DNA from: Prorocentrum cordatum
Taxonomy: Eukaryota
DNA length: 56,649 bases
Assembly (NCBI GenBank): GCA_963575745.1
Contig: CAUYUJ010000078.1
Coordinates: forward strand, 62,001 to 118,649
Reading direction: 5' to 3'
A program made the position numbers and the translations under genes. The notes under the pieces are model-generated. The model was not told the origin of the DNA. It saw only the letters and a list, made by a program, of their open reading frames with translations, and ran no database searches. Shown piece by piece: positions 1 to 36,050 of this stretch (its first letter is position 1; each line of letters starts with the position of its first letter).

Positions 1-852
1 TAGACAGGACTCACATGATTTCGGCTCGTCTCCGAGCATATCTGATGATATAATATCATCTTCGTCCACAAATGCTGAAACCAAAACACACTGGTCGGGC
101 AGCATAGTTGTTGGGACGCAATAAAGATAATCATCGGTAATCGTCGTAGGATGAAGGTCCATACGTAGCTCGTCGTACCACTCTTCCAGCATCATAGCTT
201 CAATATTGTGTTCCTCATTTTCCTCATAGATTGTCGACAGACGGCCTTCGCTCGGCGATGAAGCGTCTGGTGTGTCTGGAGAAGGCCTGTTTCCAGGCGA
301 CTCGTGTTCTCCAGACGTGTTGCTTGGATGCTGATATTTAGCCAAATCGTCGTGAAATCCTAAGGAAGGGACACGTGAAGTCAAGCATTGAATAAGTCTG
401 GAGTGAGTGCTACCAGTGATCTGAGAAATGTTTAAGCCAGTGCCCACGCATTCGTAATAGTGGAACGCCGGGCTGATGTCGTTGTCATAGTGGATCAGCG
501 TAGACCCGGTGGCGTACTTTACTGCAGGTAGGCTTGGCACACTCTTAGCCAATCGAACTGCTACTACATGTTCTACTCGGAAGTAATTCCGTACGAGATA
601 CTGTAGTGCTAAGTGTACGCGCGGGTGAAACTTGCTGTCGTCTGACAGATTAAGGTTTCCCTTGTAGTCGGGGATATACCCGAAAACTTTGGCAGGTTTC
701 CCTGCGCTGAGGTGTGCCACATAAGCAAGGACGGTTTGCATGGCCATGTTATCCATGCCAAGTTCCCGTGTGAGGAGACATTCGATGTATAGTGTGTGAC
801 GAGCATCAGGATACATCACAATTACCCCACGAGATCCTGCCTTGACAACAAT
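1..852 (-). CDS. Pol continuation after integrase (open to window edge)
   Basis: Manual translation shows a stop-free frame from ~852 (IVVKAGSRGVIVMYPDARHTLYIE...) to base 1. It is missing from the ORF track, probably because it has no stop in the window. Confidence 0.75.
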   Translation of the reverse strand, partial: MVVKAGSRGVIVMYPDARHTLYIECLLTRELGMDNMAMQTVLAYVAHLSAGKPAKVFGYIPDYKGNLNLSDDSKFHPRVHLALQYLVRNYFRVEHVVAVRLAKSVPSLPAVKYATGSTLIHYDNDISPAFHYYECVGTGLNISQITGSTHSRLIQCLTSRVPSLGFHDDLAKYQHPSNTSGEHESPGNRPSPDTPDASSPSEGRLSTIYEENEEHNIEAMMLEEWYDELRMDLHPTTITDDYLYCVPTTMLPDQCVLVSAFVDEDDIISSDMLGDEPKSCESCL

Positions 853-1534
853 GTCCTCTTTCAGGCACGTTTCGGATCACCGGGAATGGGCCGTTCCAGC
901 CTCCATGGTCGTCCTTGGTGGCAGTAGGTCGGTGGTAGTCGACCAAATCCCCTGATGAGTAGAGGCGAGCACCATCAGGAGTCGTCTTAGCCCTAAGAGC
1001 CCGATTTGTCTTGGCTACAGCAGTAGCCTGAGTTATGGCTTCGAGGCTGACTTCCCTTACACGACGTTCTCGTTCGTGTCCTGAAGTCTCGGGTCCCTTG
1101 GGAAAGTCAAGGGTATCGAGATCAGGAAGGAAGGAGGGCTGACGTCCTGTGTGTGCCTGATATGGCGATACTCCGTTATAAAACGTAAACGCATTAGTAA
1201 CGAAGATGCCTTCCGCCAATACTCTAGTGAATACAACAGGGATGTTGTGTCTATTCAATTCTTCCTCAATCATGTGGAGGACGCCTCTGAGAATGCCGTT
1301 TCGTGACTCAATTGAAGTCGCGTGTTGGCCAGGTGCACGGATACGAAGTTCCGTGCCCTTATTGGCCATCATGGTTTTAGCGGCATCGTTATTCAGGGCG
1401 CCTTCTCCGTCTGAGTATAAAACTTTGAAGGGTCCGTGATAGGCAATCCAGCAATAGTGGTAGGCGTCGATGATAGTGTCGCGTTCTCTGTCGGAAATCT
1501 CTAGGCCTGCTGCCAGGCGAATACAACGGTCCAT
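806..1534 (-). CDS. Integrase catalytic core (rve-like), separated from the upstream ORF by a 1-nt frameshift
   Basis: LYSDGEGAL (second D) to HATSIESRN (E), with 33 residues between them; N....GVSPYQ..TGR; GDLVDY.R...GWNGP C-terminal motif. Adding one T in a T-run at ~1541 restores IFHIMD. Confidence 0.88.
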   Translation of the reverse strand: MDRCIRLAAGLEISDRERDTIIDAYHYCWIAYHGPFKVLYSDGEGALNNDAAKTMMANKGTELRIRAPGQHATSIESRNGILRGVLHMIEEELNRHNIPVVFTRVLAEGIFVTNAFTFYNGVSPYQAHTGRQPSFLPDLDTLDFPKGPETSGHERERRVREVSLEAITQATAVAKTNRALRAKTTPDGARLYSSGDLVDYHRPTATKDDHGGWNGPFPVIRNVPERGHCCQGRISWGNCDVS

Positions 1535-4149
1535 AATATGAAAATGGTCCGTTTCTTGTAAAACATGAGGTCCATTTCCCCTTCATCGAGCCAGTTACCA
1601 GGGAGGCTTACCGATGGTAATGTCGAGTTTCCTGGACGTTCCCATGCTCTACATTCCCGACAGGTATCGCAGATTTCCTTGATCATGTTCAGTCGAACGT
1701 TATCAAGCCCCACCTTTTCGAGGATTCGCCTCATCTTTGGCTCCTTCGCATGACACCATCGCAGATGCAGTTTTCGGAGTTCCTTTGTCACAACATGGGG
1801 TTCGTGACTACGGAGACCCTGTAGACTGTGTTGGATGTCAAATCTCGCCCAGTCGGGTAGTCGTGGAGCCCCAGAGCCGGTGGAGGCAAGAGGGTTCCTT
1901 GTAGCTCTACGTAGTTGATCCCCTGTGTTGACTGCGTCTGGAGGTGGTGGTACGCCTTGTAGACGTCCGCGGCGGGCCGCTACCTGTGGCGCATCGCTAG
2001 AAGACGCAGAAGGCGTGTTTCCACGCTCGGGGGCGTCTCGTAGCAGGTCGTAGCTGCTGGTACCAGATGTCGGATCGACGTTACCGAAGGAACGTGGTCG
2101 TGGTGGCCTGGCGTGTGCGCCTTGGCGGCCACCTGAAGCTGAAGCTTGGCCCTCACCAGGTTTAGGTAGGGGTTTCCACCAAGCTGGCACGGTTTTGCCT
2201 TCGGGGTCGTGGTCGTCTGGTAGTTTAAATGGTTCAGCAAAACGACATTTACCAGGTTCGGTATCAAGGTGATTCTTAACACCCTTGCTTCTCGTAAGAT
2301 CCCTCTGACATGCTGGACATGGCCAGTATACAGAGATAGAGTCATGATATTTGCACTGCGTAGGGTCTCTGTTATGGCTAGGACTGTCCTTTCGGACGTT
2401 GTCGATGCATGCCGGGCACGTAGCCACCTTTGGGATGATACGATCACCGATGCGTCTCATACCTTCACCTGGTTCAGCTTGCTCAGGAAGGTCGGCAGGA
2501 TAAGCATGTGCAGTATTTATAGGCGCGTTTCCGCGCGTGGTGTCAATGGCTTTCGCCAAGTAGACGGCTTCCACGAAGGCAGACTGCAGTCGTCGAGTGT
2601 ATTTTTGTGCCAGTGAAAGCTCGGTGTTGCACGGTTGTGCGTGCACATGCTGACCGTTGCACTTGAGTCGCTCAAAGGGTTTAAGAATTGTCTTGTCGTT
2701 GCTGGTGATATTTGTCGGCTTCTTAATATAGTCACCAGTCGTATCTTTAAGTCCAGTAGCGCATTGATCAATGCGCACGGTCGCGATGTGTGGTCGGTTG
2801 GCAAGCTTCGTCCATGGAGAGATATCGCCCACCCATGTTCCTGTCGGTTGTTCGCGTATAAACAACCTCTGAGCGTCATCTTGGGCAACAGCAATTTTAC
2901 CACAATAGATTATGTGTGGTAAGTCTTCTCTGTGGTGCTGTTCCCAAGTGTTATAGTTGACTTTGTAGTTATAGTAAGATGGTGGTCCTGTGGTGCGGCA
3001 GCTGGGTTGCAGTATGGCAACTCGTACGTAGCATATCTTAAAGTAATGATCTATAACCTGCTGCACCGAGGGGTCTCCCAGGTCGACATATGTAGTCTTG
3101 TCCAAGTTGCCGCCTGAGGAAAGTCCCCTTGAGAAGGCAAGTTCTGAGATGCCACCCTCACCACCACAAAGCTCCAACATATCCACGCAATTGTTATGGC
3201 CGTAGCATAGCGTAGCAACTATGCTGTATATGTTAGCGTGTGTGTCGGGCATAGATGTGGGAAGGGTAAGGAACAGGTCATCGTCCTCGTCGGAGCTTAT
3301 CAGCTCAACAGGGGCGCCAGTACTCCAGGTTGCCATAAGATCCTGTCCGAGTCCTGACAAGTCATCGCCGCAATCGTCATTTCCGTCTTCGACGTGCTTT
3401 TTAATGCGGCGAGGCTTGATGCCTGCTTCCTTTTCGGCTTTGAGCCTTTCCTTCTGCTTTATACGCGATTCAGTGGGTAAAGCTTGCTCGTTTTGTTCGT
3501 CGGTCTGTGTACTCATTGTCGTGGTGGAATGGGTACATGCGTCAATCGCCAGAGTCGGGAGGGGGAGAGAACAGTCATCTATGATGACGCGTCTATGTTT
3601 CTGTGGTGATTGAGTAGGCTCGTTTCCGAGCAAGACCGGTTCCTCGGGTTGCCAATACAACCGAGTACTGATGTTGGCAACCCCTGCAGGTAATGGTGCA
3701 TGCCAATCATACCCTGTTGGTTGATCGGTAACTGAGATATCTTGAATAACCGCGTTGGTATCCAGGTTGATTGTTACACGTCGGATGACTTCAGACCATT
3801 TTGGTCCTCCCTTATGAGTCGTCACGTAGTGACGGGTATTATGGTCTGTACGTGTATACGTATTTAAGTATACGGGCACGTTTCCGTGCGTGGTGGTACT
3901 CCCCAGGATTTTGTCGTTTAAGTAACGGATGAGTGTAGTGCGTGTCTGAGCCCGCCATTCAGCATGTCGTACCGTATGGCCGTACCAGTCCAACACATGT
4001 TGTGGTATGGCCTGCTTACAGGTACATGTCCACAGCTTCGAGCTAATCGGTATCGATGATGCTACCTGCATATATGTACCACTTGGTGTACTGTCTTGCA
4101 TATTGAACCGAATACCGAAATGACACAAACGCATCCGTATTACTGACAA
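1501..4149 (-). CDS. pol: Pol part: C5-methyltransferase-like domain, two CxxC-H-C zinc motifs, integrase HHCC domain and first catalytic Asp
   Basis: HLRWCH...CDTCREC (HHCC, ~1650-1770); EMDLMF (first D); CPAC...H...C twice (~2185-2420); methyltransferase-like motifs (see separate feature). Confidence 0.85.
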   Translation of the reverse strand: MSVIRMRLCHFGIRFNMQDSTPSGTYMQVASSIPISSKLWTCTCKQAIPQHVLDWYGHTVRHAEWRAQTRTTLIRYLNDKILGSTTTHGNVPVYLNTYTRTDHNTRHYVTTHKGGPKWSEVIRRVTINLDTNAVIQDISVTDQPTGYDWHAPLPAGVANISTRLYWQPEEPVLLGNEPTQSPQKHRRVIIDDCSLPLPTLAIDACTHSTTTMSTQTDEQNEQALPTESRIKQKERLKAEKEAGIKPRRIKKHVEDGNDDCGDDLSGLGQDLMATWSTGAPVELISSDEDDDLFLTLPTSMPDTHANIYSIVATLCYGHNNCVDMLELCGGEGGISELAFSRGLSSGGNLDKTTYVDLGDPSVQQVIDHYFKICYVRVAILQPSCRTTGPPSYYNYKVNYNTWEQHHREDLPHIIYCGKIAVAQDDAQRLFIREQPTGTWVGDISPWTKLANRPHIATVRIDQCATGLKDTTGDYIKKPTNITSNDKTILKPFERLKCNGQHVHAQPCNTELSLAQKYTRRLQSAFVEAVYLAKAIDTTRGNAPINTAHAYPADLPEQAEPGEGMRRIGDRIIPKVATCPACIDNVRKDSPSHNRDPTQCKYHDSISVYWPCPACQRDLTRSKGVKNHLDTEPGKCRFAEPFKLPDDHDPEGKTVPAWWKPLPKPGEGQASASGGRQGAHARPPRPRSFGNVDPTSGTSSYDLLRDAPERGNTPSASSSDAPQVAARRGRLQGVPPPPDAVNTGDQLRRATRNPLASTGSGAPRLPDWARFDIQHSLQGLRSHEPHVVTKELRKLHLRWCHAKEPKMRRILEKVGLDNVRLNMIKEICDTCRECRAWERPGNSTLPSVSLPGNWLDEGEMDLMFYKKRTIFILWTVVFAWQQA
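2563..3183 (-). other. C5 cytosine methyltransferase-like domain
   Basis: Motif I-like MLELCGGEGG, motif IV-like LQPSC (Cys retained), motif VI-like IREQP, then DQC..G...KKPT, C..H.H and AQKY, in C5-MTase order. Confidence 0.65.
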
Positions 4150-4151
4150 CT

Positions 4152-4573
4152 TTAGATCTTCCAGAGTATCACGTACTGGAGATAACTTCCAAACATATCC
4201 TGGGGGACCGAATATGATGATTTCATGCGGAGTTTCTTGGCTTTTATCAACAGGTTCTGGATACGTGACCAGTGTGGGGCCACTCTCTTTCCTGGAGTTC
4301 GTATATACCAGTCACCCGGAGTACTGATCCATATGAGAGTGTAATCTCCACTGATCACCGCACCTAGATAGTTTGTGCCCACGCTTGTCATAAGTTCGTG
4401 TGGGAAATACGGTCACAAATATAACCTCGTGTGCGGAGGTCGGCGCATGCCTCCCTCGTATCTTCAATGACAAAAGCCCTCTTACTAAGGCAGGTTGCCC
4501 CGCTGTCCTTGTTACCCCCCGGCTTTTCAGCCATCAGGCAAGACGACGAGGGGGCGACGTCGCCCTGCCATCT
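4152..4573 (-). pseudogene. Interrupted polyprotein linker
   Basis: After the TGA at 4574-4576 the same frame continues (RWQGDV...AFVIEDTREACADLRTRGYICDRISH), then shifts frame near 4395 and 4220 to join the 1501-4149 ORF. Confidence 0.6.
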
Positions 4574-7500
4574 TCAAGATGAAGAAGATGTGCCTACAAT
4601 ATCTGCCAGCATCTGGGCTTCCCTCAGATGCTGGAGCTCAGCACTGCAGCGCGCCGTGGCCTCAGAGGCGGATTGCTCCGCAAATGCTGTCAGCATCGAT
4701 GGATTATCCATCAGCTGTTTCAGCACGCCTTTGGACCTAGCGTCGCTGACCGTATGCAATTCACGATTAGTGTATCCCATCACTATTTTACGGCGGGACT
4801 GCACAGCGTCCATGGGTACACTACCACCATGCAGGGCCAGTGTCCTGGCAACAAAACAATCGAACGTCTCGAGATCGTCGATGTTGTCGCCTCGCATGGT
4901 GGCCTTGGCGAGCGTCTCCATCAACCCCTGGGGCAGGTTTCCCTGCAATTGATTGCGCTCCTGCGCTGGGGTCGGCTCGCCTGTCAGCACTGTCTGGAAG
5001 GACGTGCTGCTTGAGCTCGAGGCGGGTTGCCCCGCAGCTCCAAAACAATCACACCTGATCGACAGATGCCCTGACGGCAACTTTGTCGTCGGCATGATTT
5101 TGGAGCCTTCTGGGAGCTCCATTTTGACCTGCCCCTTACCAGGGAATATCAGCTTTTCCTGGCCTCGTTCAAGCACGATGATCGTGCGTTTGTCCTGCAT
5201 ACTGTCGAGACCTAGGATGGCTGGCAGGTCCTTTCCACAGCCTGACACAATGTTCGTCTTGTATGAATCGTGTTGGGCTGACCCCTGGTACTCGCAGGCA
5301 ATGCTAAATGTGCCTACGGTATCCGCTGGGGCCGAACCCTCTCCCACTCCGTTGATATGCAAACGAGAGCGGGGCTCGAACGTACAAGCACGACCATGTG
5401 ACTCAGCAGCCTGGACGAACTTACGGCTCGTGTTCTCGCCCATGATGTTGATCTTCGAACCGACGTCGATGAGTATGGAATTTCCACCGTCATCCAAGAA
5501 CGTCTTACTCGGCTGCTTGATGTGCACAGTTTCTGAAGTGTCGGCTGTGTCGGTAGGCGGGTTTCCCCGCGGCACATTCGTACTCCCTGGCGGGTTACCC
5601 CGCACGACACTGGCATGCGACTCGCTCTCGGCCATGCGTGCCAGGTCAATGTACTGGAAGTACGACACGTGCTGGGCGTGATCACCACGCTCCTCCCGCC
5701 AGTTGGCATACTCATCACGTATGCTCATATACTGCTCGCGGGTAGTGCGCCTTATCAGCGTTAGGTACGAGTGAAGGGCGATGTCTTGCAGCCCCTCGTT
5801 CGTGACGTGATCCCGGTACCGCAACCACTCCTCGAACTCCTCATTCGTCGCTGGGATGTTGACGGCCCTGGCTGCTGTTGCTGCTGACGCCGCTGAGGAT
5901 TCTGATAGGTCTAACGACGGACTATCAGTTTCAGGATTATTGGCATCTAGCATAAGCGTTGTGTGTGTATTACCCATCTGATTCTGGAAATGTCGTACAC
6001 GCAACTCGCGCAGCTGATCAGGGCCCAGTGACATCTCAGCCTCGCCTCCACTCTGGGGAGACATCTGAGGAGTATCATGCAGGTTTCCCTGCTGAGGCGC
6101 CGTCATCGGGATAAGCTGATCGAAATATCCCGTTGCCAAAGGCGGCCTTACCTCTTCAGGCAGGTGTCCCTGCTGGTGTGACGAAACTGTCTGCAAAGCT
6201 AGCATCCTGGTCGTCATCTCCTCCACCATACTCCTCAGCTCCCGCAGCTCCCTCGCTGACTGCTCGGGAGTCTGACTAAGGGAGCCAGTCCATGGGAAGG
6301 ACGATGTTATAATGCCAGGTGCACGACAGATCGCGCATGGTGGCTGCTGGGGATCTCCCCCACGCTGGTTTGTCACGTGGCCCACCACGTTAGAATTCCA
6401 GCATCCCTCGTGGAATAGGTGATTGCACCTCAGGCGGTACACACTATCCCTGGGCTGAAATTCTTCGAGGCATACAGCACAGGTGTCCTCCATCCCAGTA
6501 AAGACTTCTACGTCTGCTACCCTGGGATATACCCGCCGCTGCCTCTCCAATACCGTCTCGGAGGGCATGAAGGCTGATGGGGGTGTCCCCGCTGGATTCA
6601 GCACTTCCTGCACTTCGACATTTGGCATGGAAGTGGTAGGAGTCACGGCAGGCGAGTTTCCTCGCAAAGGTGAGCCCCTATTCCGCACCACGTCGAGTGC
6701 AGCTGCACGTGACTGGTCCCGTACACTTTGCACCGCCTGCCTCCTCCTGAAACATGCCTGCTGAGTGTGGTGCGTCTGCCTGATGTAGTCAGGCACGCCC
6801 CTACTGCCAGACGATATTGAATGGGCAGTGGGTTGCACAACCACCTCTGGTGATGTTGGAGAAGGCATGAAGGCCATGTGCGGGTACATGGAGTGGTCAC
6901 TGCAGCGCACATTGGTGAGGTTATGCATCTGATCCGCCAATTCCCGAACAAATTTGTTCGGGACCCTTGTACCGTCAGGGTATAATGGCGGATTCATCTG
7001 CGTGGGTGGTGGCCTCTGGCCCTGAGACATGCTCGGATGGGCGTTGAACGCCGGGATAAAGGCTCGTTGCCGAGCGGGGTCCCGTGGGTTGGGACCCTCC
7101 GGTTCCCAGGACCAGGCTGGCCTCCACCTCTGTCCACTTGGGTGAGGCAGATTATGGTTCTGCACCTGCTGTACCGCGGCCGCCACTCTTGAGCGATAGT
7201 CGTCGGGTATACCCGCCCTGTGGTGGCTTGGTGTACCAGGCAGGTTTCCCTGCTGACTCGTTGGCGTGCCGGGCGGCATCATGTTGAGGAGGGCTGTGCT
7301 GTGATCAGCCCTAGCCGCAGCTAACCTCTCCATGAGTGTGCCGTTTACGGCAGGGCGGACAGGTGTCCCAAATGGGGATTGTGCTGGCGGAGTGCCCGAT
7401 GGAGTCATGCCCCTTGGAGTGTGCATGCTCTGTGTGGGGCTTGCGTGCATTGGCTCGAACCGAGCAGGTCCGCTTGTAGGCAGGTTTCCCTGCATGGCTT

Positions 7501-10500
7501 GACGATTTCTCGTGGCCATAGCGGACATTGCTCCCTGGCCTGCGGCCCAGGGATCCTGCTGGTACAGCCTGTCCGCCAGCTGTTCTACCTGGTCAGGGTT
7601 CAGCGAAGCTGCAATCTGATGCAGGTCTGAAGTACTTATGGCCTGCCAAGACACGGCGCTCGGCCCTTGGCTTGGGGCACGGCTTGGAGCCGCGCTCCCG
7701 GCCTCACTCTCGGTGATCATAAAGATCCGAAAGATCTCAGGCTGGTTTCCCAGCTGGGTGGGGCTGTAGTGGTCCCCAACGTCCCTGTGGAGGTAGATCA
7801 TGGCTGGATCAGCGCCCTCTTGGTCTCGGGACCACTGGTACTTAATGCTGGAATTACCAACATCAGCCCACCTATCTGAGGCAGTCATCGTACTGACAGA
7901 GACTCGCACACGGCGGCTCCCCAAATATTCTGGGTTGCGCCATTGCCTTCCAGTGGTCAGGTCCTCTACATGGGAAATGTAATACGGTTCAATGATACCG
8001 TTATCTCCCTCGGACAAGAGGACTCCGTTATCGGACCAACAGAACTTCATACCATCTTGTATGGCCTTGCGCCAATCTACAAAGATGACGAGGTCTGAAT
8101 CTGGGTCCCACCCACTGTTCACGGCACGGCGGCGCACTGTCGGCACGAAATGGATGTGTGAACGGCCTGTCCCCCTTTCCTTCGTGTTGTGCTCAGGTCT
8201 ACAGGACAGGCCGTACCACATGATACCTTCGAAAGCGTGCCATCGAGTGCCATGCATGGCGACTTCAGGGTATGGGGCCGGTCTCCCGGCGGGTTCGTCG
8301 CACAGTACAATGTAACTGTACAGCGACCATGGAGCTTTCAATGTCCATGAATGCCCCTGAGAGGCGCGGACGAAGATAGCGGGCTCGCCGGAGTCCCGCA
8401 TTAGCACCTTGAATTGAAGGCGCTGTTTTTCTTCTCCGTCTGGTTCACGAACATGAACAACTTCCATCATGATGGCTGCGAGTTGGTCAACCGAGCGACC
8501 ATACAACTGCTCGCTAATGACTTTGGCCTCGTCATATTTTGGGTTATGTCCAGCGTGCCTCGAGTGACCTGTGTTCCACGGAAAGTCAGCCACGAGTTCC
8601 ACGAGGTTAATCCAACCATCATGATCATCACAGGATCTCAGGCGCCACACAGGATTATGTGACTTATCTGGCGCATGTCTACATATCCTGCTGAGAGCTT
8701 TGCTTAACTTTTTAAGAGCATCATTGGATGTGGGAAGAATTCCGGCCTTCCTGCATTCCTTCATGAATGACTCATCCACCGAACGTATCGGTGGGAGCTT
8801 CCGAAGTGCCAGTCTACCCCTAATCAGATCTGGAGTCCCACTAGTAAAGGATGTGTCTGATGGGTGGTGCAGCTGAACTACTGGCGGGTTTCCCCGCATC
8901 GGAGCCTCTGTTGCCGAAGAGGCTGCGGCCCCAGAAGAGGAGGAAGCTGCGGCAGCAGCGCCTGGCGGGTTTCCCCGCGGAGATGCGCGACTGGCGCTGC
9001 CCCTGATCTTCGGCACCCAGTTACCCCTCGACATAGCACCTTCATCGGACCTCCTGGAACGAGCCGCCACAGGCGAAGCTGGCGCGGGTGCATACCCACT
9101 GCGCTCGAAAGCTGCCGCCCTTTTCGCAATGGACTTGCTGCGACTAAGCGGGCGTCTTCGTTCCTCCATAGGGTCCTGAGGTTGCTGCTTGGGCACAAAC
9201 GCTTGTGGAGGAGTTGCGCCAATTGGCGGCCTCGGCGTCGCAGATCGAGGCACCTCCATATGCACGTCTGGCCCAAGGCTCTGAGAGCTCGCCTTCGGTT
9301 TCGGCTCCGGAGACGGCTTAGGTGTCGGGGGTTCACTCTTAGCCTTCGAAGTTAGTGGGAGTGGGGGCTTCCTAGCCCCCTTCATGTAGATCGTGCTGGA
9401 ATCCTCCAACATCTTGCGAGTTGCCTCGCGCGTGCGTTCTTCTACTGTCCGAATACGCTCCTCATCCTCCGCCACACGTTGAGCCTTTGTCTCGTCCTTG
9501 ATGATCGGCTCTGGTTGTTGGGACTGGCTAGAGACGCCAGGCGAGTTTCCTCGCATACCAGGAAGACTAAAGAGCGCGTCTTTCTCTTCCTGGGTCATGG
9601 CTACCATTCCCCTTGGAGCCGGAGTAGGTTTCTCTTCTTCTTTCGGATCCAAGTGGCCCGAGATCCCGAGACGACTATTCACTACTGCGATCTCTTCCGG
9701 TGTCATCGGGTCAAGTGGCGGATGGCCCTCTTTAGGAGGGGTTTTGCCCCTGTTAGGGCTCAGGCCTTCGTTGTTTCCAACGGGGCATCCTGGCCTGTGA
9801 TTCTGGAACGGCTGGGAACAAGGACCGCATGCAGCGTGAGGCCTATACTGCTTGCGAGCCGCGATAATATCTCGCAACTGGGTCCGCGCTTCTTGAATTT
9901 CAGGGCGGCGGATGTTTGTTGCAAGCTGATAGCCTCCACGGATGGGCCTGCCATCGCCGTCCCTATAGGCAGGATTGCCCTGGCCGAAGGCCGAGTGTTC
10001 CCCTTTTCGGCGTCGTGGGTCGTTGTGCGGAAGTAGCTGGCCACCTCTTCTGAGAGCGTGTTCCTTTGGGCCAGCCTGTCTCCACTCACGAGGAAGTCGA
10101 GCCTGGGGATGTGGCTCTTCTCTGACGCGCGTATGGGAACGAGATCTTCTGGTGTTCTCATCAGAAGAAGCTGCCGATGCAGCAGGAGCGGCACCCGTTG
10201 GAGGTGCTTGAGGAGGCTCCTCTGCGATCCCAGATGGATCGCTCGATGGAGGCAGGTCTCCCTGCTGGGTGGAGCTCGGCGCAAGTGGCTCTTGTGCCGA
10301 TGGTGATGATGATTCAGACTCATCAGGGTCGAAATCGACCTCTTCCTCACCAGTCACGTCCATCATGAGGATGGTGACGTCATCCTCATCTAACCCACAA
10401 CCATCGCCTTCTACTTCTTCTGATGTCGAACTACCAATTATGATGGCCATTGGCGCATCTGGTAAAAGCAGGTTTCCCTGCATGGCCGGCGTCTGGGCGT

Positions 10501-10738
10501 CGCTCGGCTGTCCTGGAGTAGGAGGCGCAGTCGTCGGCTCAGGGTCATCGACGAGCATAGGCTGCCTAGCAATGTTACGCATGGCCGTATGGTTTGGCCT
10601 CATCCCCAGCTCCTGGAGATTCCATCCTGGCGGGGGAAAATCATGACCACGCATAGCCATGGCCATTTCCAGGGCACGACGCCATCTACCATGGGAGTAT
10701 ATCAAGTGTCTCTGCACTTCCTGAGGATTTACTGTCAA
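4574..10738 (-). CDS. Polyprotein middle part (2054 aa): low-complexity linkers, Tpt1/KptA domain, RING-H2 finger, retropepsin-like protease
   Basis: Long ORF overlapping the gag ORF end with a +1 frame offset (~10686-10745); the domain motifs are listed as separate features. Confidence 0.85.
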   Translation of the reverse strand: MTVNPQEVQRHLIYSHGRWRRALEMAMAMRGHDFPPPGWNLQELGMRPNHTAMRNIARQPMLVDDPEPTTAPPTPGQPSDAQTPAMQGNLLLPDAPMAIIIGSSTSEEVEGDGCGLDEDDVTILMMDVTGEEEVDFDPDESESSSPSAQEPLAPSSTQQGDLPPSSDPSGIAEEPPQAPPTGAAPAASAASSDENTRRSRSHTRVREEPHPQARLPREWRQAGPKEHALRRGGQLLPHNDPRRRKGEHSAFGQGNPAYRDGDGRPIRGGYQLATNIRRPEIQEARTQLRDIIAARKQYRPHAACGPCSQPFQNHRPGCPVGNNEGLSPNRGKTPPKEGHPPLDPMTPEEIAVVNSRLGISGHLDPKEEEKPTPAPRGMVAMTQEEKDALFSLPGMRGNSPGVSSQSQQPEPIIKDETKAQRVAEDEERIRTVEERTREATRKMLEDSSTIYMKGARKPPLPLTSKAKSEPPTPKPSPEPKPKASSQSLGPDVHMEVPRSATPRPPIGATPPQAFVPKQQPQDPMEERRRPLSRSKSIAKRAAAFERSGYAPAPASPVAARSRRSDEGAMSRGNWVPKIRGSASRASPRGNPPGAAAAASSSSGAAASSATEAPMRGNPPVVQLHHPSDTSFTSGTPDLIRGRLALRKLPPIRSVDESFMKECRKAGILPTSNDALKKLSKALSRICRHAPDKSHNPVWRLRSCDDHDGWINLVELVADFPWNTGHSRHAGHNPKYDEAKVISEQLYGRSVDQLAAIMMEVVHVREPDGEEKQRLQFKVLMRDSGEPAIFVRASQGHSWTLKAPWSLYSYIVLCDEPAGRPAPYPEVAMHGTRWHAFEGIMWYGLSCRPEHNTKERGTGRSHIHFVPTVRRRAVNSGWDPDSDLVIFVDWRKAIQDGMKFCWSDNGVLLSEGDNGIIEPYYISHVEDLTTGRQWRNPEYLGSRRVRVSVSTMTASDRWADVGNSSIKYQWSRDQEGADPAMIYLHRDVGDHYSPTQLGNQPEIFRIFMITESEAGSAAPSRAPSQGPSAVSWQAISTSDLHQIAASLNPDQVEQLADRLYQQDPWAAGQGAMSAMATRNRQAMQGNLPTSGPARFEPMHASPTQSMHTPRGMTPSGTPPAQSPFGTPVRPAVNGTLMERLAAARADHSTALLNMMPPGTPTSQQGNLPGTPSHHRAGIPDDYRSRVAAAVQQVQNHNLPHPSGQRWRPAWSWEPEGPNPRDPARQRAFIPAFNAHPSMSQGQRPPPTQMNPPLYPDGTRVPNKFVRELADQMHNLTNVRCSDHSMYPHMAFMPSPTSPEVVVQPTAHSISSGSRGVPDYIRQTHHTQQACFRRRQAVQSVRDQSRAAALDVVRNRGSPLRGNSPAVTPTTSMPNVEVQEVLNPAGTPPSAFMPSETVLERQRRVYPRVADVEVFTGMEDTCAVCLEEFQPRDSVYRLRCNHLFHEGCWNSNVVGHVTNQRGGDPQQPPCAICRAPGIITSSFPWTGSLSQTPEQSARELRELRSMVEEMTTRMLALQTVSSHQQGHLPEEVRPPLATGYFDQLIPMTAPQQGNLHDTPQMSPQSGGEAEMSLGPDQLRELRVRHFQNQMGNTHTTLMLDANNPETDSPSLDLSESSAASAATAARAVNIPATNEEFEEWLRYRDHVTNEGLQDIALHSYLTLIRRTTREQYMSIRDEYANWREERGDHAQHVSYFQYIDLARMAESESHASVVRGNPPGSTNVPRGNPPTDTADTSETVHIKQPSKTFLDDGGNSILIDVGSKINIMGENTSRKFVQAAESHGRACTFEPRSRLHINGVGEGSAPADTVGTFSIACEYQGSAQHDSYKTNIVSGCGKDLPAILGLDSMQDKRTIIVLERGQEKLIFPGKGQVKMELPEGSKIMPTTKLPSGHLSIRCDCFGAAGQPASSSSSTSFQTVLTGEPTPAQERNQLQGNLPQGLMETLAKATMRGDNIDDLETFDCFVARTLALHGGSVPMDAVQSRRKIVMGYTNRELHTVSDARSKGVLKQLMDNPSMLTAFAEQSASEATARCSAELQHLREAQMLADIVGTSSSS
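5180..5480 (-). other. Retropepsin-like aspartic protease domain
   Basis: ILIDVGSKINIMG active-site-like motif (DVG instead of D[ST]G), flap-like INGVGEG, C-terminal LPAILGLD. Confidence 0.75.
6321..6483 (-). other. RING-H2 (C3H2C3) zinc finger
   Basis: CAVCLEEF...LRCNHLFHEGCW...CAICR, i.e. C-x2-C...C-x-H-x2-H-x2-C...C-x2-C. Confidence 0.88.
7960..8715 (-). other. TPT1: Tpt1/KptA (PTS_2-RNA) NAD+-dependent RNA 2'-phosphotransferase domain inside the polyprotein
   Basis: Family motifs in the correct order: LSKALSRICRH, DGWINL, KQRLQF, RASQGHS, HGT, GL, RSHIHF, SG, VIFVD, GMKF, SDNGVLL, GII. Confidence 0.9.
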
Positions 10739-13304
10739 TGAGAGTCAAAGCTGCCAAGAGTAGCTCTGAGCTACCGCAAGCATCATTATCTTGTTCTGTC
10801 ATAATACCAGCTTCAAATTGTTCTTGACTCTCAGGATATGCAATTGCAAGTATCTCATGCATCCACATGAGGGTCTGCAAAAGTGCACGCGGTCCATATT
10901 CGCCTGGAGCAAGCGAACCAGGAGGTATGAACGGAGAACCTGGTTCGCCTGCAATGAAGGCCTGAACAAATGCTTGAGACTCCATTTCAATGAAGTCTTC
11001 AGTGGTCTGGGGATATTCCCCCATCAAAGAAGGCCTGTTTCCAGGCGGGATTTCGGGCGGATGTTCGAGGTTCCGTTGAACCTCGGAAGGCGAAGCCTCT
11101 ATAATGGTGTCCTCGTCGTCGCTCTCGTAGGCCATGATGTTGCCTGGGTTCCCGAACATCCAGTCGAGGAAGGAAAGAGGCTCGTTTCCGAGCGTACCGT
11201 GTTCCACGGGAGTGAGTTCATTACTGCCCGTGACGAACCGGCGGACGTACTCGAGGTAATACGCGTATAATCCATGACCATACCCCTCGAGCTCGTCAAT
11301 GTTGTCCACGCCAACGACCCATGTGAAAAATATCTGTTCCATAGCCTCAAAGTCCTGGAGGCTCAGATACTCAATGGATGGTGTGCTTGAGCCGAAATGG
11401 ACTTCGGACGACATGCCCTTTCCATTTCCCTTCGCTGGACAATCTCGCACAAGATGATCGGCACTACCACATTCATGGCATTTGAGAACCTGGCCGTCTC
11501 TAACTCGCGGGTTTCCCCGCCTACCTTTACCTTTACCTGAGGTCTCTCTACGGCCTTTACCACGGCCTTTTCCCCCAAAGAATATCTCATCATGTTGTTC
11601 ATCGGAGAGCCTCTGGAGAAATGCCGCGATACCTCGCCCGTTCAACCTCCGACGACCACGCTTGCCTTTGCCCTTTCCTTTAAAACTCCTACGTATCCTC
11701 CTTCTGACACGACGCACTGGTTTTCGTGTGAACCTCCTCCACCTTCGTTTAGCCTGTTGTAACAGCCAGAATAAATGCTCAGCACGCTGATTGTCATTAT
11801 CCAGATTCATGATATCTGACCAATCTAGAGCTTCAACACCATCTGATGATATAGTGTCTGTATCGGTGCCGGAGTCGAAATCTTCGTCTCCTAAATAGGT
11901 GGATACACCGTCGGTTAGGGGATTTGATTCCCCCCATAACGAGCGGTGTGGTTGTGGTTCTCTAGAGGGAGGGCTGGTTGCCCAGCTTGGTTGTGATCGA
12001 TCCCCTGCTAGTAAAGCAGTGGCTTCTCCTGAATCGTCGGCCCATATGTTTGAGGGCCCGTTTCCAGGCTGGGCTTCAGTGGTCAAGGTAGTGTAGAAAT
12101 TTCCACTACCAGATCCTCTTCCTCTTCCAAACACGGATCCTATGTTACCAGGAGATCGTTCGGATAGGTGGCCTACCGAACGCATTCTCTCCAGCAACTC
12201 ATCATACTGTTGTTGTGTTCGAGGCATTTGGTGATTGAGTGGCTGTAAGAGTTGCATGGCCTTCTGGTTGCCGACGCCTAGGGCGCGGAATAGGATAGTA
12301 GTTAACAGTTGGAAGTTGGGAAGGTCGAATCCCACCGACTGTGCCTCAAGTCGGGCCATTTCGAATCGGGTAAGAGTAACATCGATTCGTTCCCCGTGAG
12401 GCACATGGAAGTCAATAAGTTGTGTGCCGGAAGTGAGCTGTCGCTCATCTTCCAGGCGTTCGAATTTCATGCTGAGGAGAAACATAATATAAGTTACTGG
12501 GTCTGTGTGGACCCCGTCGATATCAGCGCCATAGTTTATGATGTCAGGCGGTACCCTCATGGCGAGTGTCCTCGCTAGGCCTCCCAGGCCGCGTTGTATT
12601 GCGGCCGCTTGGGCCTGTGGCGTCATACGTCCGCTTGTAACGTTGGGCCACGCGTTGACCTCGTAAATGTACTCACGAAAAGGTACATTACCCTGAGGGT
12701 CCCAATATGGGCCATGTGTTTGCCCATCGGTGCTGTTATCTCCCCGACGCATGCGTGCGATTGCTGCCCCCAGCGCGAACCATATGATAGCGAAAACGAT
12801 TAGCCCGAGAATGTGTAACGAAGGACGGTTATGATGAGCGGTGTCGCGCTGGGGTAGCGCCTTGTCGAGTCTTCGAGGCGCTCTGTCTGGCGGGTTTCCC
12901 CGCCCTTGCTTCAGGTATTGCGTTATTGGCTCGTTGCCGAGCGGTTGATAGTAACGCAATGATGAAGCGTATATGGTACCAATCTGGTCGTCTAGACGTC
13001 GTACCTCTCGTGTAGCTTCTTGCTCTTGAATAGATCCTCGTAAATGTACTGGGAGTGGTGGCGCAGGGTAGTAGGTGGTCACGAAGATCGTGCCGAAGAA
13101 TGTGAGGCTGAGAAGAGCAAGAGCTGACCACACGAGAGTGCGGCCAGCTCCGCTACCAAGTCGAAAGTGAGCCTGGTAACTCAAATAAGGCATATAGCCT
13201 GGCAAATAGCATCCATCGCTCTGCTGTGAGGGTACAGTATGAGGGGTGGATGGGTAAGATAGGATAAGATCGATGTAATGATCTTTCCAGCACATAGCGA
13301 ACAC
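10686..13304 (-). CDS. gag: Gag-like polyprotein N-terminal part, with CCHC zinc knuckle
   Basis: Capsid-like segment GPYWDPQGNVPFREYIYEVNAW...QAAAIQRGLGGLARTLA; basic KGKGK/RR tract; knuckle CHECGSADHLVRDC (~11439-11480). The true start may be the internal Met of MRRGD (~12753). Confidence 0.85.
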   Translation of the reverse strand: MFAMCWKDHYIDLILSYPSTPHTVPSQQSDGCYLPGYMPYLSYQAHFRLGSGAGRTLVWSALALLSLTFFGTIFVTTYYPAPPLPVHLRGSIQEQEATREVRRLDDQIGTIYASSLRYYQPLGNEPITQYLKQGRGNPPDRAPRRLDKALPQRDTAHHNRPSLHILGLIVFAIIWFALGAAIARMRRGDNSTDGQTHGPYWDPQGNVPFREYIYEVNAWPNVTSGRMTPQAQAAAIQRGLGGLARTLAMRVPPDIINYGADIDGVHTDPVTYIMFLLSMKFERLEDERQLTSGTQLIDFHVPHGERIDVTLTRFEMARLEAQSVGFDLPNFQLLTTILFRALGVGNQKAMQLLQPLNHQMPRTQQQYDELLERMRSVGHLSERSPGNIGSVFGRGRGSGSGNFYTTLTTEAQPGNGPSNIWADDSGEATALLAGDRSQPSWATSPPSREPQPHRSLWGESNPLTDGVSTYLGDEDFDSGTDTDTISSDGVEALDWSDIMNLDNDNQRAEHLFWLLQQAKRRWRRFTRKPVRRVRRRIRRSFKGKGKGKRGRRRLNGRGIAAFLQRLSDEQHDEIFFGGKGRGKGRRETSGKGKGRRGNPRVRDGQVLKCHECGSADHLVRDCPAKGNGKGMSSEVHFGSSTPSIEYLSLQDFEAMEQIFFTWVVGVDNIDELEGYGHGLYAYYLEYVRRFVTGSNELTPVEHGTLGNEPLSFLDWMFGNPGNIMAYESDDEDTIIEASPSEVQRNLEHPPEIPPGNRPSLMGEYPQTTEDFIEMESQAFVQAFIAGEPGSPFIPPGSLAPGEYGPRALLQTLMWMHEILAIAYPESQEQFEAGIMTEQDNDACGSSELLLAALTLIDSKSSGSAETLDILPW
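11386..11408 (-). other. Relic dinoflagellate spliced leader inside the gag ORF
   Basis: TCCGAAGTCCATTTCGGCTCAAG versus DinoSL TCCGTAGCCATTTTGGCTCAAG: 2 substitutions plus 1 insertion; translates as EVHFGSS. Confidence 0.65.
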
Positions 13305-13385
13305 AAGCAGTGTCCGGGCAAATAGGACGCGCGTGCCTTGAGCCCAAGGCAGCGGCGCGCGAGCTATGCTCCCGATACTGTAACA
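13274..13385 (-). repeat. Candidate short 5' LTR (~112 bp)
   Basis: On the minus strand it starts TGTTA (13385) at the element/satellite boundary and ends TTACA (13274), and contains a TGCCTTG-GGCT-CAAGGCA hairpin. The second LTR is not in the window and no canonical TGG primer-binding site follows, so the inner boundary is uncertain. Confidence 0.4.
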
Positions 13386-13399
13386 TATCCCAAAGAGCT

Positions 13400-13835
13400 A
13401 CCCTTAAAGTCCTGAGAGGCCCCCAAGATGCGTCCCAAGACGGTCCCTGGACGCAGACATGTACGTATTCCCGTCGTGAAACGTACAATGTTCACACATC
13501 CGCCTTCTGGGCTTTCCGACGCTCCTAGACGGCCCAAGAGGCCCCGAAAACCGCCCCAAGACGGCCCAAGAGGCCCCCAAGACGGCCCCGCGACGGTCCA
13601 ATATGGCCCCAAGACGGCCCAAGAGGTCCCCAAAACGGCCCAAGAAGGCTCCAAGACGGCACCAAGAGGGGCCCAAGAGGGCAACCAACAATTCAAAAAT
13701 CTAGTTTTCCGCCCCCACGAGCCCCAGGGGGCCCCAAGAGCGCCCCAACAGGCCGCCAACGGCCCTCAAGAAACCGCCAAGACGCCCCAAGGAGCCCACA
13801 AGAGGCCCCCAGGAGGCCCCCAAAAGACCCCCAGA
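13400..13835. repeat. Degenerate GGCCC(C)AAGA satellite (related tracts at ~17400-17520, 18985-19190, 26480-26690)
   Basis: Repeated ggcccaaga/gccccaaga/cccaagacgg units of about 10-21 bp. Confidence 0.8.
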
Positions 13836-14954: not shown

Positions 14955-15210
14955 AGGATTCAAGATGACGCGGGCGCAACAGTTACGTTGATTCGCAATG
15001 GTGAAATAAGTCCCAGGCATGGCGTTCTGGCACGAATCAGGATCGTCAACCCGAAACAGTCCCGAGAACAATGCTCTGGCATGCTTCAGGGTCTTCAAAC
15101 CGTTGACTTCCAACGAAGCAGTTCCCTCAATGGAAATGAACCGTTGTAGGGGCCTATGACGAGGGGACAAAGCTTGGAGGGATGGTGAATTCCAACATCG
15201 TTGATGACTC
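14955..15210. repeat. Dispersed ~250-bp repeat, second copy at ~16160-16430
   Basis: Shared blocks acgcgggcgcaacagtta, ggcgttctggcacga, tcccgagaaca, ggcatgcttcagg, atggaaatgaaccgttgt, gtgaattccaacatcgttgatgac. Confidence 0.85.
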
Positions 15211-17163: not shown

Positions 17164-17195
<32 letters not shown>

Positions 17196-19204: not shown

Positions 19205-19495
<291 letters not shown>

Positions 19496-29950: not shown

Positions 29951-29959
29951 TGATCCTGG

Positions 29960-31899: not shown

Positions 31900-36050
<4,151 letters not shown>

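Follow-up and report, generated by a model that had tools for sequence, protein, structure and literature searches.

A 56,649-nucleotide stretch of the genome of the dinoflagellate Prorocentrum cordatum (assembly GCA_963575745.1, contig CAUYUJ010000078.1, positions 62,001 to 118,649 of the forward strand; hereafter the window) begins with a long coding region in which domains typed as those of a retroelement alternate with a Tpt1 RNA 2'-phosphotransferase, a RING zinc finger and a methyltransferase-like (MTase-like) domain. What kind of element is this, and which of these modules are its own? We consider it likely that positions 1-13385 of the window, read on the minus strand, represent four-fifths, counted from the 5' end, of a single copy of a high-copy long terminal repeat (LTR) retrotransposon of Ty1/copia order. 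This judgement is a joint one, and it covers the layout of the element, readthrough of the stop codon between its two open reading frames (ORFs), and an array of hairpins acting as RNA signals in cis. The element is arranged as a short LTR, primer-binding site (PBS), leader, Gag with an Arg-rich stretch and a CCHC knuckle, Tpt1, RING, retropepsin-like protease, in-frame stop codon, domain X, MTase-like domain, zinc modules, and integrase (Table 1). ORF1 encodes Gag, Tpt1, RING and protease. ORF2 encodes domain X, the C5-cytosine-MTase-fold domain, Cys/His modules, an HHCC zinc finger and the integrase core.

The minus strand of positions 1-13397 is covered end to end by five stop-free frames with a total of 4,445 codons. 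Translations of frames 1, 3 and 4 are labelled P0001, P0003 and P0004. An earlier note, made from the sequence without database searches, had described more than 13 kb of collinear coding sequence ahead of the reverse transcriptase (RT), with the domain order Gag, Tpt1, RING, protease, MTase-like domain, zinc fingers and integrase. This order is present in the minus-strand frames. The collinear coding sequence is there too, broken by four frame changes and one in-frame TGA. Its beginning at 13385 has to be moved: the first ~645 nt (to 12753) are LTR, PBS and leader, and coding before the RT amounts to ~12.75 kb. By analogy with two relatives described below (L005 and P0158), the coding part of the whole element is estimated at ~14.7 kb, and the genomic RNA would be ~15-16 kb long.

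Contigs of four public runs (X1, X2, X3 and X8) were aligned to the window at a likeness of at least 88%, and most were 90-99% alike. Summed contig depth over positions 1-13041 ranges from 587 to 4360 in X1, from 1878 to 7460 in X2, from 138 to 335 in X3, and from 7 to 35 in X8. Over positions 14176-14742 it is 488, 436, 22 and 3, respectively. The prevailing form of the family is one long frame with a single in-frame stop, because the numbers of extra bases in other copies exactly join the five frames (Table 1). The window copy is young, dead and lightly decayed, and its deletions are missing from the majority of other copies in three of the four runs. Depth over positions 5671-11340, from the C-terminus of Gag through Tpt1 to RING, is about half of that over the rest of the element in X1 and X2, so part of the family may be without this central part or differ in it. 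One X2 contig joins position 12883 to 5547, skipping 7.3 kb, and each of the joined ends follows, within a few bases, one of two identical hairpins (12890-12903 and 5557-5570). The junction may be a deletion derivative formed by template switching at the hairpins.

An alignment-based locus scan of metagenomes identified 13 loci with a total length of 60.3 kb (among them L002-L006, L012 and L013); a first metagenome scan with P0005 returned 93 pattern matches, none of which was a relative. In L002-L006, collinearity with the window extends from RING to the part that follows the integrase, and domain X and the MTase-like domain are found in all collinear relatives. Among the long phmmer matches, 12 of 16 contain the RT domain RVT_2, ~650-750 residues after rve, and no family was found in the other four. 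PF07727, which we count as RVT_2 evidence, was precomputed in 18 of 23 longer homologues. The homologue P0158, with 2,159 residues and 66% identity over the query region, has RVT_2 at residues 1616-1811, and RVT_2 is also present in L003 and L005. By the yardstick of its place in P0158 and other relatives, the RT of the window element would start a few hundred bases to the left of window base 1. Two distant homologues of 2512-2554 residues and 30-31% identity, P0168 and P0171, contain a DnaJ domain, a further cargo module of the clade, in the C-terminal part (residues 2106-2149 and 2116-2166, respectively), and no RVT_2 was seen in either. The clade tends to collect modules. One distant homologue is labelled Symbiodinium kawagutii. 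The only near match of frame 2 (2,056 residues) is P0006, a 1,207-residue gene model labelled Prorocentrum cordatum, which at its end incorporates two fragments of the protease region of another copy, 95% and 82% identical. The fragments are joined by a predicted intron with its donor at the GTAA-loop hairpin (window 5590-5603). This intron and gene model are probably an annotation artefact.

The 5' end of the element contains a block, CTCACTTTC(G/A)ACTTGGTAGCGGAGCTG, in which 26 of 27 nt agree between the window and L005, in surroundings that are non-coding and otherwise poorly aligned. We read it as the end of the LTR together with the PBS. The core TGGTAGCGGAGC occurs once in the window (13158-13147) and behind the pol stop in two of the 13 loci, L002 and L005, where the PBS follows the pol stop and precedes gag; the other eleven metagenome loci have no match to the core. 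The TGG start of a PBS is the complement of the CCA end of a tRNA. The site presumably resembles those of initiator-Met type, and the window contains no tRNA genes. Position 13385 is a plausible 5' limit of the element, because satellite-like CTCTTGGGG units run up to 13386. No second copy of the LTR region (12700-13520) or of the element was found in the remaining 43 kb of the window.

The Gag homology begins at residue 216 of P0001, of which residues 216-319 are 52% identical to L005 8663-8974. In L005 this beginning lies 320 nt behind the pol stop and coincides with an ATG that has stops ahead of it. The most likely start of the polyprotein is therefore the ATG at 12752-12750. Upstream of Met216, the open frame (13397-12753) was rejected as coding sequence: it holds the LTR end and the PBS, and its counterpart in L005 contains stops. 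In L002 (7695-8146) and L005 (8360-8664), the same PBS is located within 230-440 nt of the pol stop, and in L005 the gag start follows. This arrangement represents either tandem elements sharing one LTR or an assembly collapse of two LTRs. Arrays of 10/11-bp units (GGCCCCAAGAG-like) are located at 13500-13850, 19000-19200 and 26490-26630, with very high contig depth and many loose contig ends, and the element adjoins one of them. A depth peak at 13042-13608 may belong to the LTR or to the adjacent 10/11-bp satellite, which are inseparable at 567-nt bins.

The CCHC knuckle of Gag matches Pfam zf-CCHC with 19.1 bits (E 0.0014), slightly below the cut-off of 20.8, and the CCHC segment is conserved in L003. 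The Tpt1 domain matches PF01885 with an E of 6e-22 (79 bits, cut-off 26) and aligns to the TRPT1 chains 7yw3 (E 3e-11) and 7yw2 (E 1e-9). Its RH motif and the arginines of RASQGHS and RSHIH form an Arg-His-Arg-Arg set that we take to be the Tpt1 catalytic tetrad. None of the five collinear relatives (L002-L006) was found to have Tpt1, and the one word-based match to this domain, with 70% identity and a green-alga label in EukProt, is uninformative as to origin. Tpt1 is an addition of this lineage, yet it is multi-copy. The RING finger scores 35.1 bits on zf-RING_11 (cut-off 27, E 1.1e-8) and 26.9 on zf-RING_2, just under the cut-off of 27.3. It occupies the same relative place in L002, L003, L005 and P0041, and relatives score 30.9-41.3 on zf-RING_2. 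CCHC and RING are ~728 residues apart in L003 versus ~1,650 in the window element. In the protease, the motifs D-x-G-S, NGVG and LPAILG are invariant in seven sequences.

Domain X at the start of ORF2 is conserved in L002-L013, and the path from 4573 to 4220 through window frames 1, 2 and 0 is also that of the P0158 N-terminus. In a protein-atlas comparison, domain X matched unnamed clusters only (0.91-0.92); the nearest named one (0.82), a fragmentary viral C5-MTase cluster, is a lead only. A phmmer search of 1.84 billion representatives with frame 3 gave 1,544 matches at E <= 1e-3, of which 127 were at <= 1e-30, and the long ones align over residues ~270-930. In an alignment of 38 sequences of the MTase-like domain, Cys99 (QPSCR) is present in at least 90% and Glu148 (REQP) in all; residues were assigned to motifs I, IV and VI by eye. 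The AlphaFold model of the domain has a mean predicted local distance difference test score (pLDDT) of 83.8. All Foldseek matches listed for the model are C5 MTases, as are all 50 rows from VIA-align, which align ~190 residues at a root-mean-square deviation of ~4 and Z of 9.2-10.4; the partners include M.HhaI, DNMT1, DNMT3A/B, DIM2 and DNMT5. No target-recognition domain was aligned by VIA-align, and PF00145 had no match to P0003 at E <= 0.1. RING and the MTase fold are, judging from the sequences compared, ancestral to a clade of more than 1,500 database proteins. The integrase core is 54-62% identical to those of L002-L006. It is supported through a relative: P0004 residues 8-236 align to P0124 residues 1000-1233 (4e-33), and rve matches P0124 at residues 989-1073 with 34.1 bits (cut-off 32.6). 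The integrase cores of the window and five relatives have no direct match in Pfam or in the PDB, which was tried with a single sequence and a 6-sequence profile.

These results bear on the remaining claims of the earlier note. A retroelement lineage of copia order with modules of its own agrees with the multi-copy contig cover of 1-13041, Tpt1 and RING included. The insertion is not a one-off nested one, as RING, protease, X, MTase-like domain, integrase and RVT_2 are collinear in L002-L006 and in long database proteins. The note had treated the three accessory modules as equivalent cargo. All three belong to the element, but RING and the MTase-like domain are old and clade-wide, and Tpt1 was seen in this lineage only. 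The term MTase-like is apt for the C5-MTase fold and the catalytic-type Cys and Glu, but by profile the domain is not a PF00145 member. The cargo modules may serve as a host-manipulation or anti-silencing toolkit, as the note proposed. Two features that we describe next are new here and had not been seen in the note: the array of hairpins and the stop conserved behind the protease.

Behind the TGA that ends ORF1, the reading frame stays open and conserved. In L002-L006, all five of which were examined, a TAG in frame is followed by G and similar codons. It stands 6 to 56 codons behind the protease homology, and the protease frame then continues. L012 and L013, which have many stops in every frame at this place, were left out of this comparison. 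The N-terminus of P0158 matches the sequence directly behind the ORF1 stop. Eight further homologues of 1977-2043 residues and 98-99% query cover have the length of ORF2, as if starting near that stop; of the ORF2-length homologues, the N-terminus was read for P0158 only. Since frame and codons right behind the stop are conserved, the comparison suggests stop-codon readthrough at the ORF1/ORF2 junction. Reinitiation, instead of readthrough, could also operate at this stop. We know of no readthrough motif that matches the contexts TAG-G and TGA-A. A hairpin site is located ~60-75 nt behind the stop: it is imperfect in the window (4490-4503) and L002 (~1612-1625), and perfect in L003. In P0160, P0164 and P0165 the same site is visible in the peptide, as a motif at residues 13-21. 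This post-stop hairpin site might be part of the stop-codon context.

A pentapeptide, x-G-N-x-P, that recurs in the translations led us to hairpins in the DNA. On its sense strand, the element has 32 hairpins with a perfect 5-bp stem and a GNRA loop, and 30 of these have the form GCNNG-GNRA-CNNGC. The antisense strand contains two, neither with a GC clamp, and the remaining 43 kb of the window one per strand. Over 200 codon-block shuffles, the mean number was 0.385 and the maximum 3. The loops are GAAA in 22 hairpins, GCAA in six, GAGA in three, and GTAA in one. When the frame GC..G-GNRA-C..GC is fixed (n=32), both middle pairs are complementary in 30 cases, the chance being 1/16 each, and two cases have one mismatch. 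There are 12 different stems. The base after the hairpin is C in 26/30, and the base before it is G in only 2/30. Since the preceding base is rarely G, the stem is held at 5 bp and the unit at 15 nt. Twenty-five of the 32 hairpins start at the third codon position (P = 2.7e-7), and six of the seven out of phase have GCAA or GAGA loops.

Folding with flanks of +/-40 nt placed 29/32 hairpins in the local minimum free energy (MFE) structure, at -4.5 to -9.3 kcal/mol, and in 30/32 all pairs have a probability of at least 0.5. Most hairpins are positioned between domains. Two are in the leader, one is inside a domain, in a Tpt1 loop, and four lie within a few codons of a domain edge. Rfam 15 has no match at gathering score in 1-14000. 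The halves of the 11-nt receptor of the GAAA tetraloop are not enriched (CCTAAG 1 versus ~3.3 expected; TATGG 16 versus ~13), and a model of compaction by tetraloop-receptor contacts is thus unsupported. Four further perfect 5-bp stems on the sense strand have GACA loops, which are not of GNRA type.

The hairpins extend to relatives. The 13 loci contain ten GC-clamped hairpins on the sense strand and none on the antisense strand, compared with 0.04 in shuffles. The motif is present in relatives of 39-66% identity and missing from those of ~30% identity, and its density in the phmmer set P0007-P0156 is 0.28 per 1,000 residues versus ~6 in the window element. In the alignment of ORF2 proteins, motifs occupy the same columns with lineage-specific stems. 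One motif cluster is shared by 9/10 lineages and reads RGNTP in the window and HGDVP, RGDAT, PGDRI or HGNVA elsewhere. L002 has GCGCG-GAAA-CGTGC opposite GCACG-GAAA-CGTGC of the window, with a G.U wobble that can pair only in the sense orientation. In P0158, all seven motifs have G-D where the window mostly has G-N, which, read from the peptides, implies GAGA in place of GAAA loops throughout.

The array bears the marks of a selected RNA structure, given its strand specificity, GNRA loops, fixed clamp, complementary free pairs, wobbles, and changed orthologous stems. Loop and stem have switched across whole lineages, which suggests that one trans-acting reader, co-evolving with the hairpins, serves them all. 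We hypothesize that the genomic RNA is translated to an abundant Gag-Tpt1-RING-protease product, and that readthrough of the stop gives a rarer full polyprotein that would be cut by the protease. The hairpins would be cis-acting RNA signals for an RNA binder encoded by the element. Our first choice of reader is the Arg-rich/CCHC nucleocapsid part of Gag, which may tag the very long RNA and compact it for packaging; 23/43 residues of its stretch are basic, two hairpins lie where packaging signals usually lie, and Arg-rich and knuckle peptides have precedents as hairpin readers. The preferred codon phase, giving x-Gly-Asn-x-Pro, might be the reading least harmful to a linker, which Gly, Asn and Pro would suit. 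Tpt1, RING and the MTase-like domain would act on the RNA or cDNA of the element itself and on host proteins.

A bolder form of the proposal is that the hairpins are a new type of dispersed in-frame RNA code that marks the ~15-kb RNA for a co-evolving reader or writer encoded by the element. We put this forward tentatively. Candidates are the Arg-rich/CCHC Gag, for packaging; the Dnmt2-like domain, for 5-methylcytosine (m5C); and a repair cycle of cleavage, ligation and Tpt1. If such a code exists, switches of the loop (GAAA to GAGA) and of the stem would be address changes that keep the RNAs of related families apart in packaging or marking.

Several observations weigh against the proposed layout, readthrough and hairpin function. 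The 3' part of the element is beyond window base 1, so that RT, RNase H, polypurine tract, 3' LTR and target-site duplication are outside the window. In run X1, the extra-base forms are in the minority at three of the five break places. The protease, MTase-like domain and integrase core have no Pfam match, nor do domain X and the post-integrase region of the window. The protease model has a mean pLDDT of only 57.8 (core 67-88), and its ten best Foldseek matches, all retropepsins (XMRV, FIV and EIAV proteases, DDI1), reach at best an E of 4.5e-3. Its active-site motif is D-V-G-S in the window and D-L-G-S in relatives, where retropepsins usually have D-T/S-G. The best Foldseek match of the MTase-like model, Dnmt2 (6fdf), has an E of 1.1e-3. 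The stop contexts differ between the window (TGA-A) and its relatives (TAG-G). The strong bias in codon phase and the coordinated change of N to D also fit a role at the peptide level. The evidence for orthologous motifs in P0158-P0166 is from peptides and not from DNA. Some relatives have uniform stems, such as PGNRI/PGDRI at most sites of P0164 and HG[ND]V in P0165. A loop-reading protein leaves these unexplained, and copy-and-paste spread or gene conversion could have produced them.

In a first alternative, the 15-nt units are selfish or mechanistic by-products without function for the element that survive only where five extra codons are tolerated, as in linkers and in the phase giving Gly-Asn-x-Pro. 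They could arise as small palindromic insertions, by template switching of the RT, or by gene conversion. The constant unit of exactly 15 nt or five codons (GCNNG-GNRA-CNNGC + C in 26/30) is in keeping with this origin. So are the stems repeated within P0164, P0165 and L006, as copy-and-paste would give, the uneven density (32 in 13.4 kb here versus 10 in 60.3 kb of relatives), and the X2 contig broken behind identical hairpins, which hints at sites of template switching. However, 12 stems with perfect pairing in 30/32 frames require either selection or a mechanism that makes palindromes, and no mechanism is known to us by which new palindromes would arise with perfect pairing, a constant GC clamp and a loop of GNRA type. 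At 39-66% identity, relatives still show hairpins in matching alignment columns, their stems changed, and loop orientation is strictly that of the sense strand. We regard a by-product origin as unlikely.

An improbable account, in our estimate, is that the pentapeptide x-G-(N/D)-x-P itself matters, as a flexible linker or a protease cleavage motif, and that RNA pairing is secondary. It would explain why 25/32 hairpins share one codon phase and why most sites are between domains, with 1/32 inside one. In retroviruses, type-1 cleavage sites carry Asn at P2 and Pro at P1', and the change of N to D in P0158 could track the specificity of a co-evolving protease. A peptide function does not account for the reverse-complement codons before Gly and after Asn in 30/32 frames, for the seven hairpins out of phase, or for the two in the non-coding leader. 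The P1 residue also varies (Pro, Leu, Glu, Ser, Ala, Val, Thr, Gln, Arg), which makes no consistent protease site.

The RNA hairpins could also be substrates of the element's own enzymes and not of Gag, a reading to which we give little credence. They would be methylated to m5C by the Dnmt2-like domain, or would be sites of cleavage and re-ligation at which Tpt1 clears 2'-phosphates before reverse transcription. Dnmt2 is a methyltransferase of tRNA stem-loops. It is the best fold match of a domain that has no recognisable DNA target-recognition domain; this match covers DNA and RNA C5-methyltransferases alike, with Z tied within 1. The sole established substrate of Tpt1 is the internal RNA 2'-phosphate left by joining of the tRNA-ligase type. 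The motifs taken as its four catalytic residues are kept here, and hairpins are far denser in the lineage with Tpt1 than in the others, but relatives without Tpt1 have hairpins as well.

It is very improbable that the locus is a chimera, in which host Tpt1/RING genes or further insertions lie inside a smaller copia element, or an integrase-bearing DNA transposon: the unusual size, the RT not seen in the window, the absence of Tpt1 from L002-L006, and the halved depth over 5671-11340 in X1 and X2 would agree with it, but Tpt1, RING and protease share one 2,056-codon stop-free frame with the same hairpins throughout, the whole stretch is multi-copy, RING has the same place in relatives, RVT_2 follows the integrase there, and a PBS-like block follows the LTR.

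Outside the retrotransposon, trinucleotide microsatellites (CCT, CGT/CGC, CTT/ATT, GTA) occupy 14400-17350, 19130-19520, 23900-24800, 33630-35180 and 42700-43500 and account for the strong GC and AT skews of those stretches. A near-palindrome of (GTA)n/(TAC)n, 160-175 nt in length, is located at 34040-34402. Tandem repeats of 18, 42 and 62 bp (families D20, D11 and D14) are found at 26313-26474, 27739-28506 and 29897-30501, respectively. On the plus strand, 43666-49856 contains three long stretches without stops (621, 322 and 1,254 codons), of which the first and second share a frame. They have no Pfam match at E <= 1e-3 and may belong to another unclassified element or gene.

Table 1. Features of the retrotransposon in window coordinates. 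Extra bases are those of other copies, by run; the phase of a hairpin is the codon position at which it starts.
Feature	Position	Strand	Remarks
Frame 1	13397-10686	-	903 codons, stop-free
Frame 2	10744-4574	-	2,056 codons, stop-free
Frame 3	4311-1501	-	936 codons, stop-free
Frame 4	1582-806	-	258 codons, stop-free
Frame 5	876-1	-	292 codons, stop-free; continues past window base 1
Putative 5' LTR, ~220 bp	13163-13385	-	3' end from conserved CTCACTTTCR before PBS; 5' end as in the earlier note (TGTTACAG...)
PBS TGGTAGCGGAGCTG	13145-13158	-	starts TGG; first 12 nt identical in L002 8135-8146 and L005 8590-8601
Leader, ~390 nt, PBS to gag ATG	12753-13144	-	two GNRA hairpins inside
Likely ORF1 start codon	12750-12752	-	Met216 of open frame; homology to relatives begins there
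Gag	11430-12752	-	conserved N-terminal part, Arg/Lys-rich stretch, CCHC knuckle
Gag Arg/Lys-rich stretch	11631-11759	-	R/K = 23/43 residues
Gag Arg/Lys-rich stretch, further part	11493-11576	-	from sequence
CCHC knuckle, C-x2-C-x4-H-x4-C	11439-11480	-	Pfam zf-CCHC
Tpt1/KptA RNA 2'-phosphotransferase domain	8006-8713	-	PF01885; residues 678-913 of frame 2
Tpt1 motif RH	8669-8707	-	kept
Tpt1 motif RASQGHS	8348-8374	-	kept
Tpt1 motif HGT	8240-8260	-	kept
Tpt1 motif RSHIH	8144-8167	-	kept
RING-H2-type zinc finger, C3H2C3-type spacing	6317-6487	-	zf-RING_11
Retropepsin-like protease	4991-5575	-	ILIDVGS 5453-5476; LPAILGLDS 5201-5227
In-frame TGA ending ORF1	4574-4576	-	same frame open and conserved behind stop
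ORF2 start and conserved domain X	3877-4573	-	two single-base deficits in window copy, near 4397/4398 and 4220/4221
C5-cytosine-MTase-fold domain	2530-3198	-	ELCGGEGG 3145-3174; QPSCR 2986-3012; REQP 2839-2862; DQC 2752-2772
Two Cys/His (zinc-binding-type) modules	2245-2418	-	conserved C..C....H....C columns; pLDDT 85-92
HHCC zinc finger, integrase N-terminus	1651-1767	-	read from sequence
Integrase catalytic core	875-1581	-	D in GEMDLMF, D in LYSDGEG, E in SIESRNG
Conserved integrase-RT spacer region	1-876	-	36-41% identity to L002-L006; continues off window
Extra TA or CG (frame break 1)	after 10729/10731		X1 76.2/110.2; X2 780.3/780.3; X3 57.5/57.5; X8 no cover
Extra A or T	after 4397/4398		X1 76/674; X2, X3, X8 all
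Extra T or C	after 4220/4221		X1 ~22%; X2 ~35%; X3 ~95%; X8 all
Extra T	after 1543		X1 325/635; X2 1606/1980; X3 96/103; X8 5.25/5.25; window copy without 1 base
Extra AT	after 850		X1 321/1703; X2 1224/1413; X3 82/121; X8 11.1/13.1; window copy without 2 bases
Hairpin GCTCG-GCAA-CGAGC	12929-12942	-	leader
Hairpin GCGGG-GAAA-CCCGC	12890-12903	-	leader
Hairpin GCTGG-GCAA-CCAGC	11973-11986	-	phase 2
Hairpin GCGGG-GAAA-CCCGC	11507-11520	-	phase 3 (RGNPR); between Arg-rich stretch and CCHC
Hairpin GCTCG-GAAA-CGAGC	11180-11193	-	phase 3
Hairpin GCCTG-GAAA-CAGGC	11033-11046	-	phase 3
Hairpin GCAGG-GAAA-CCTGC	10468-10481	-	phase 3
Hairpin GCAGG-GAGA-CCTGC	10252-10265	-	phase 3
Hairpin CGTTG-GAAA-CAACG	9769-9782	-	phase 3; without GC clamp
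Hairpin GCGAG-GAAA-CTCGC	9541-9554	-	phase 3
Hairpin GCGAG-GCAA-CTCGC	9416-9429	-	phase 2
Hairpin GCGGG-GAAA-CCCGC	8965-8978	-	phase 3
Hairpin GCGGG-GAAA-CCCGC	8884-8897	-	phase 3
Hairpin GCCGG-GAGA-CCGGC	8277-8290	-	phase 1; Tpt1 loop, gapped versus TRPT1; only one in a recognised domain
Hairpin GCTGG-GAAA-CCAGC	7741-7754	-	phase 3
Hairpin GCAGG-GAAA-CCTGC	7480-7493	-	phase 3
Hairpin GCAGG-GAAA-CCTGC	7240-7253	-	phase 3
Hairpin GCTCG-GCAA-CGAGC	7062-7075	-	phase 1
Hairpin GCGAG-GAAA-CTCGC	6652-6665	-	phase 3
Hairpin GCAGG-GAAA-CCTGC	6079-6092	-	phase 3
Hairpin GCGGG-GTAA-CCCGC	5590-5603	-	phase 3; outside local MFE, lowest pair probability 0.62
Hairpin GCGGG-GAAA-CCCGC	5557-5570	-	phase 3; N-edge of protease
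Hairpin GCGGG-GCAA-CCCGC	5022-5035	-	phase 1; C-edge of protease; outside local MFE, lowest pair probability 0.04
Hairpin GCAGG-GAAA-CCTGC	4933-4946	-	phase 3
Hairpin GCGGA-GCAA-TCCGC	4668-4681	-	phase 1; outside local MFE, lowest pair probability 0.06
Hairpin GCACG-GAAA-CGTGC	3876-3889	-	phase 3; end of domain X; L002 hairpin in same alignment column
Hairpin GCTCG-GAAA-CGAGC	3618-3631	-	phase 3
Hairpin GCGCG-GAAA-CGCGC	2523-2536	-	phase 3; boundary of MTase core and Zn modules
Hairpin GCGTG-GAAA-CACGC	2013-2026	-	phase 3; L006 TCGTG-GAGA-CACGA in same alignment column
Hairpin GCAGG-GAAA-CCTGC	692-705	-	phase 1
Hairpin GCCTG-GAAA-CAGGC	285-298	-	phase 3; L002 one-mismatch hairpin in same alignment column
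Hairpin GCTCG-GAGA-CGAGC	24-37	-	phase 3

Dinoflagellates have very large genomes full of repeats, and little has been described of the mobile elements in them. The family presented here indicates that a copia-type element can bear ~2.5x the usual coding load, and that a copia-type clade keeps RING and an MTase-fold domain across more than 1,500 database proteins. We found no description of the family in the literature searched, the scope of which ended short of Repbase, Dfam and subscription journals, and the retrotransposon passages of PMC11453091 and PMC10449503 do not mention it. Neither a Tpt1 encoded by a retrotransposon nor an array of GNRA hairpins in one was found in the titles and beginnings of abstracts that this literature comprised. 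As far as that literature extends, the element is the first retroelement with Tpt1, which would point to an unrecognised replication step involving an RNA 2'-phosphate or an ADP-ribosylated end. The hairpin array offers a testable case of RNA structure selected within coding sequence and covarying between families, and the copy number is high enough to measure selection from one genome.

Known systems resemble individual parts of the element. Its Tpt1 aligns with TRPT1 (7yw3, 7yw2) in the motifs RH, R-x-x-Q-G-H-S, HGT and R-x-H-I-H, but it is positioned in a retrotransposon polyprotein between Gag and RING and has insertions, one of which encodes a hairpin. Gammaretroviruses express pol by readthrough of the gag-pol stop codon. 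The likeness consists in an in-frame stop between an upstream product and downstream enzymes, with frame and downstream codons conserved in the element; the stop of the element comes after the protease and not between gag and protease.

Arg-rich or zinc-knuckle peptides encoded by the same genetic element read stem-loops in the lambda N/boxB system, in retroviral nucleocapsid binding to psi stem-loops, and in the dispersed packaging signals of single-stranded RNA viruses. The window element shares with these systems small stem-loops with purine-rich, GNRA-like loops that occur multiple times along the RNA, some of them in the leader; for the element, binding is only proposed. It differs in having ~30 copies, nearly all in coding sequence and mostly in one codon phase, and in combining a fixed GC clamp with free covarying middle pairs. 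We do not claim its membership in any of these systems.

Among dinoflagellate elements, SmTCL1-4 of Symbiodinium microadriaticum are ~10-kb retrotransposons of Ty1/copia type, described with integrase, RT, RNase H and LTRs only (Chen et al. 2018, PMC5776459). Comparison by description, not by sequence, reveals a likeness in the SmTCL order, with the integrase upstream of RT and RNase H between flanking LTRs, and in the many recent copies in a dinoflagellate genome. In the window family, relatives carry RVT_2 after the integrase, and the PBS follows a short LTR. The window family adds Tpt1, RING, domain X, the MTase fold, the post-protease stop, and the hairpins. Retrotransposons that carry DNA methyltransferases are SymbioLINE-Dnmt, SymbioDIRS-Dnmt3 and KnitGypsy-Dnmt3, of LINE, DIRS and Gypsy types, with domains described as matching PF00145 (de Mendoza et al. 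2018, PMC5890265). They have in common with the window element a C5-MTase fold with catalytic-type Cys and Glu within a dinoflagellate retrotransposon polyprotein. The window element differs from them, as there described, in its copia order and in a domain that has no PF00145 match and occurs in more than 1,500 database proteins. Copia order would thus be the fourth retrotransposon class with a DNMT-like domain, and this domain would be overlooked in searches with the PF00145 profile.

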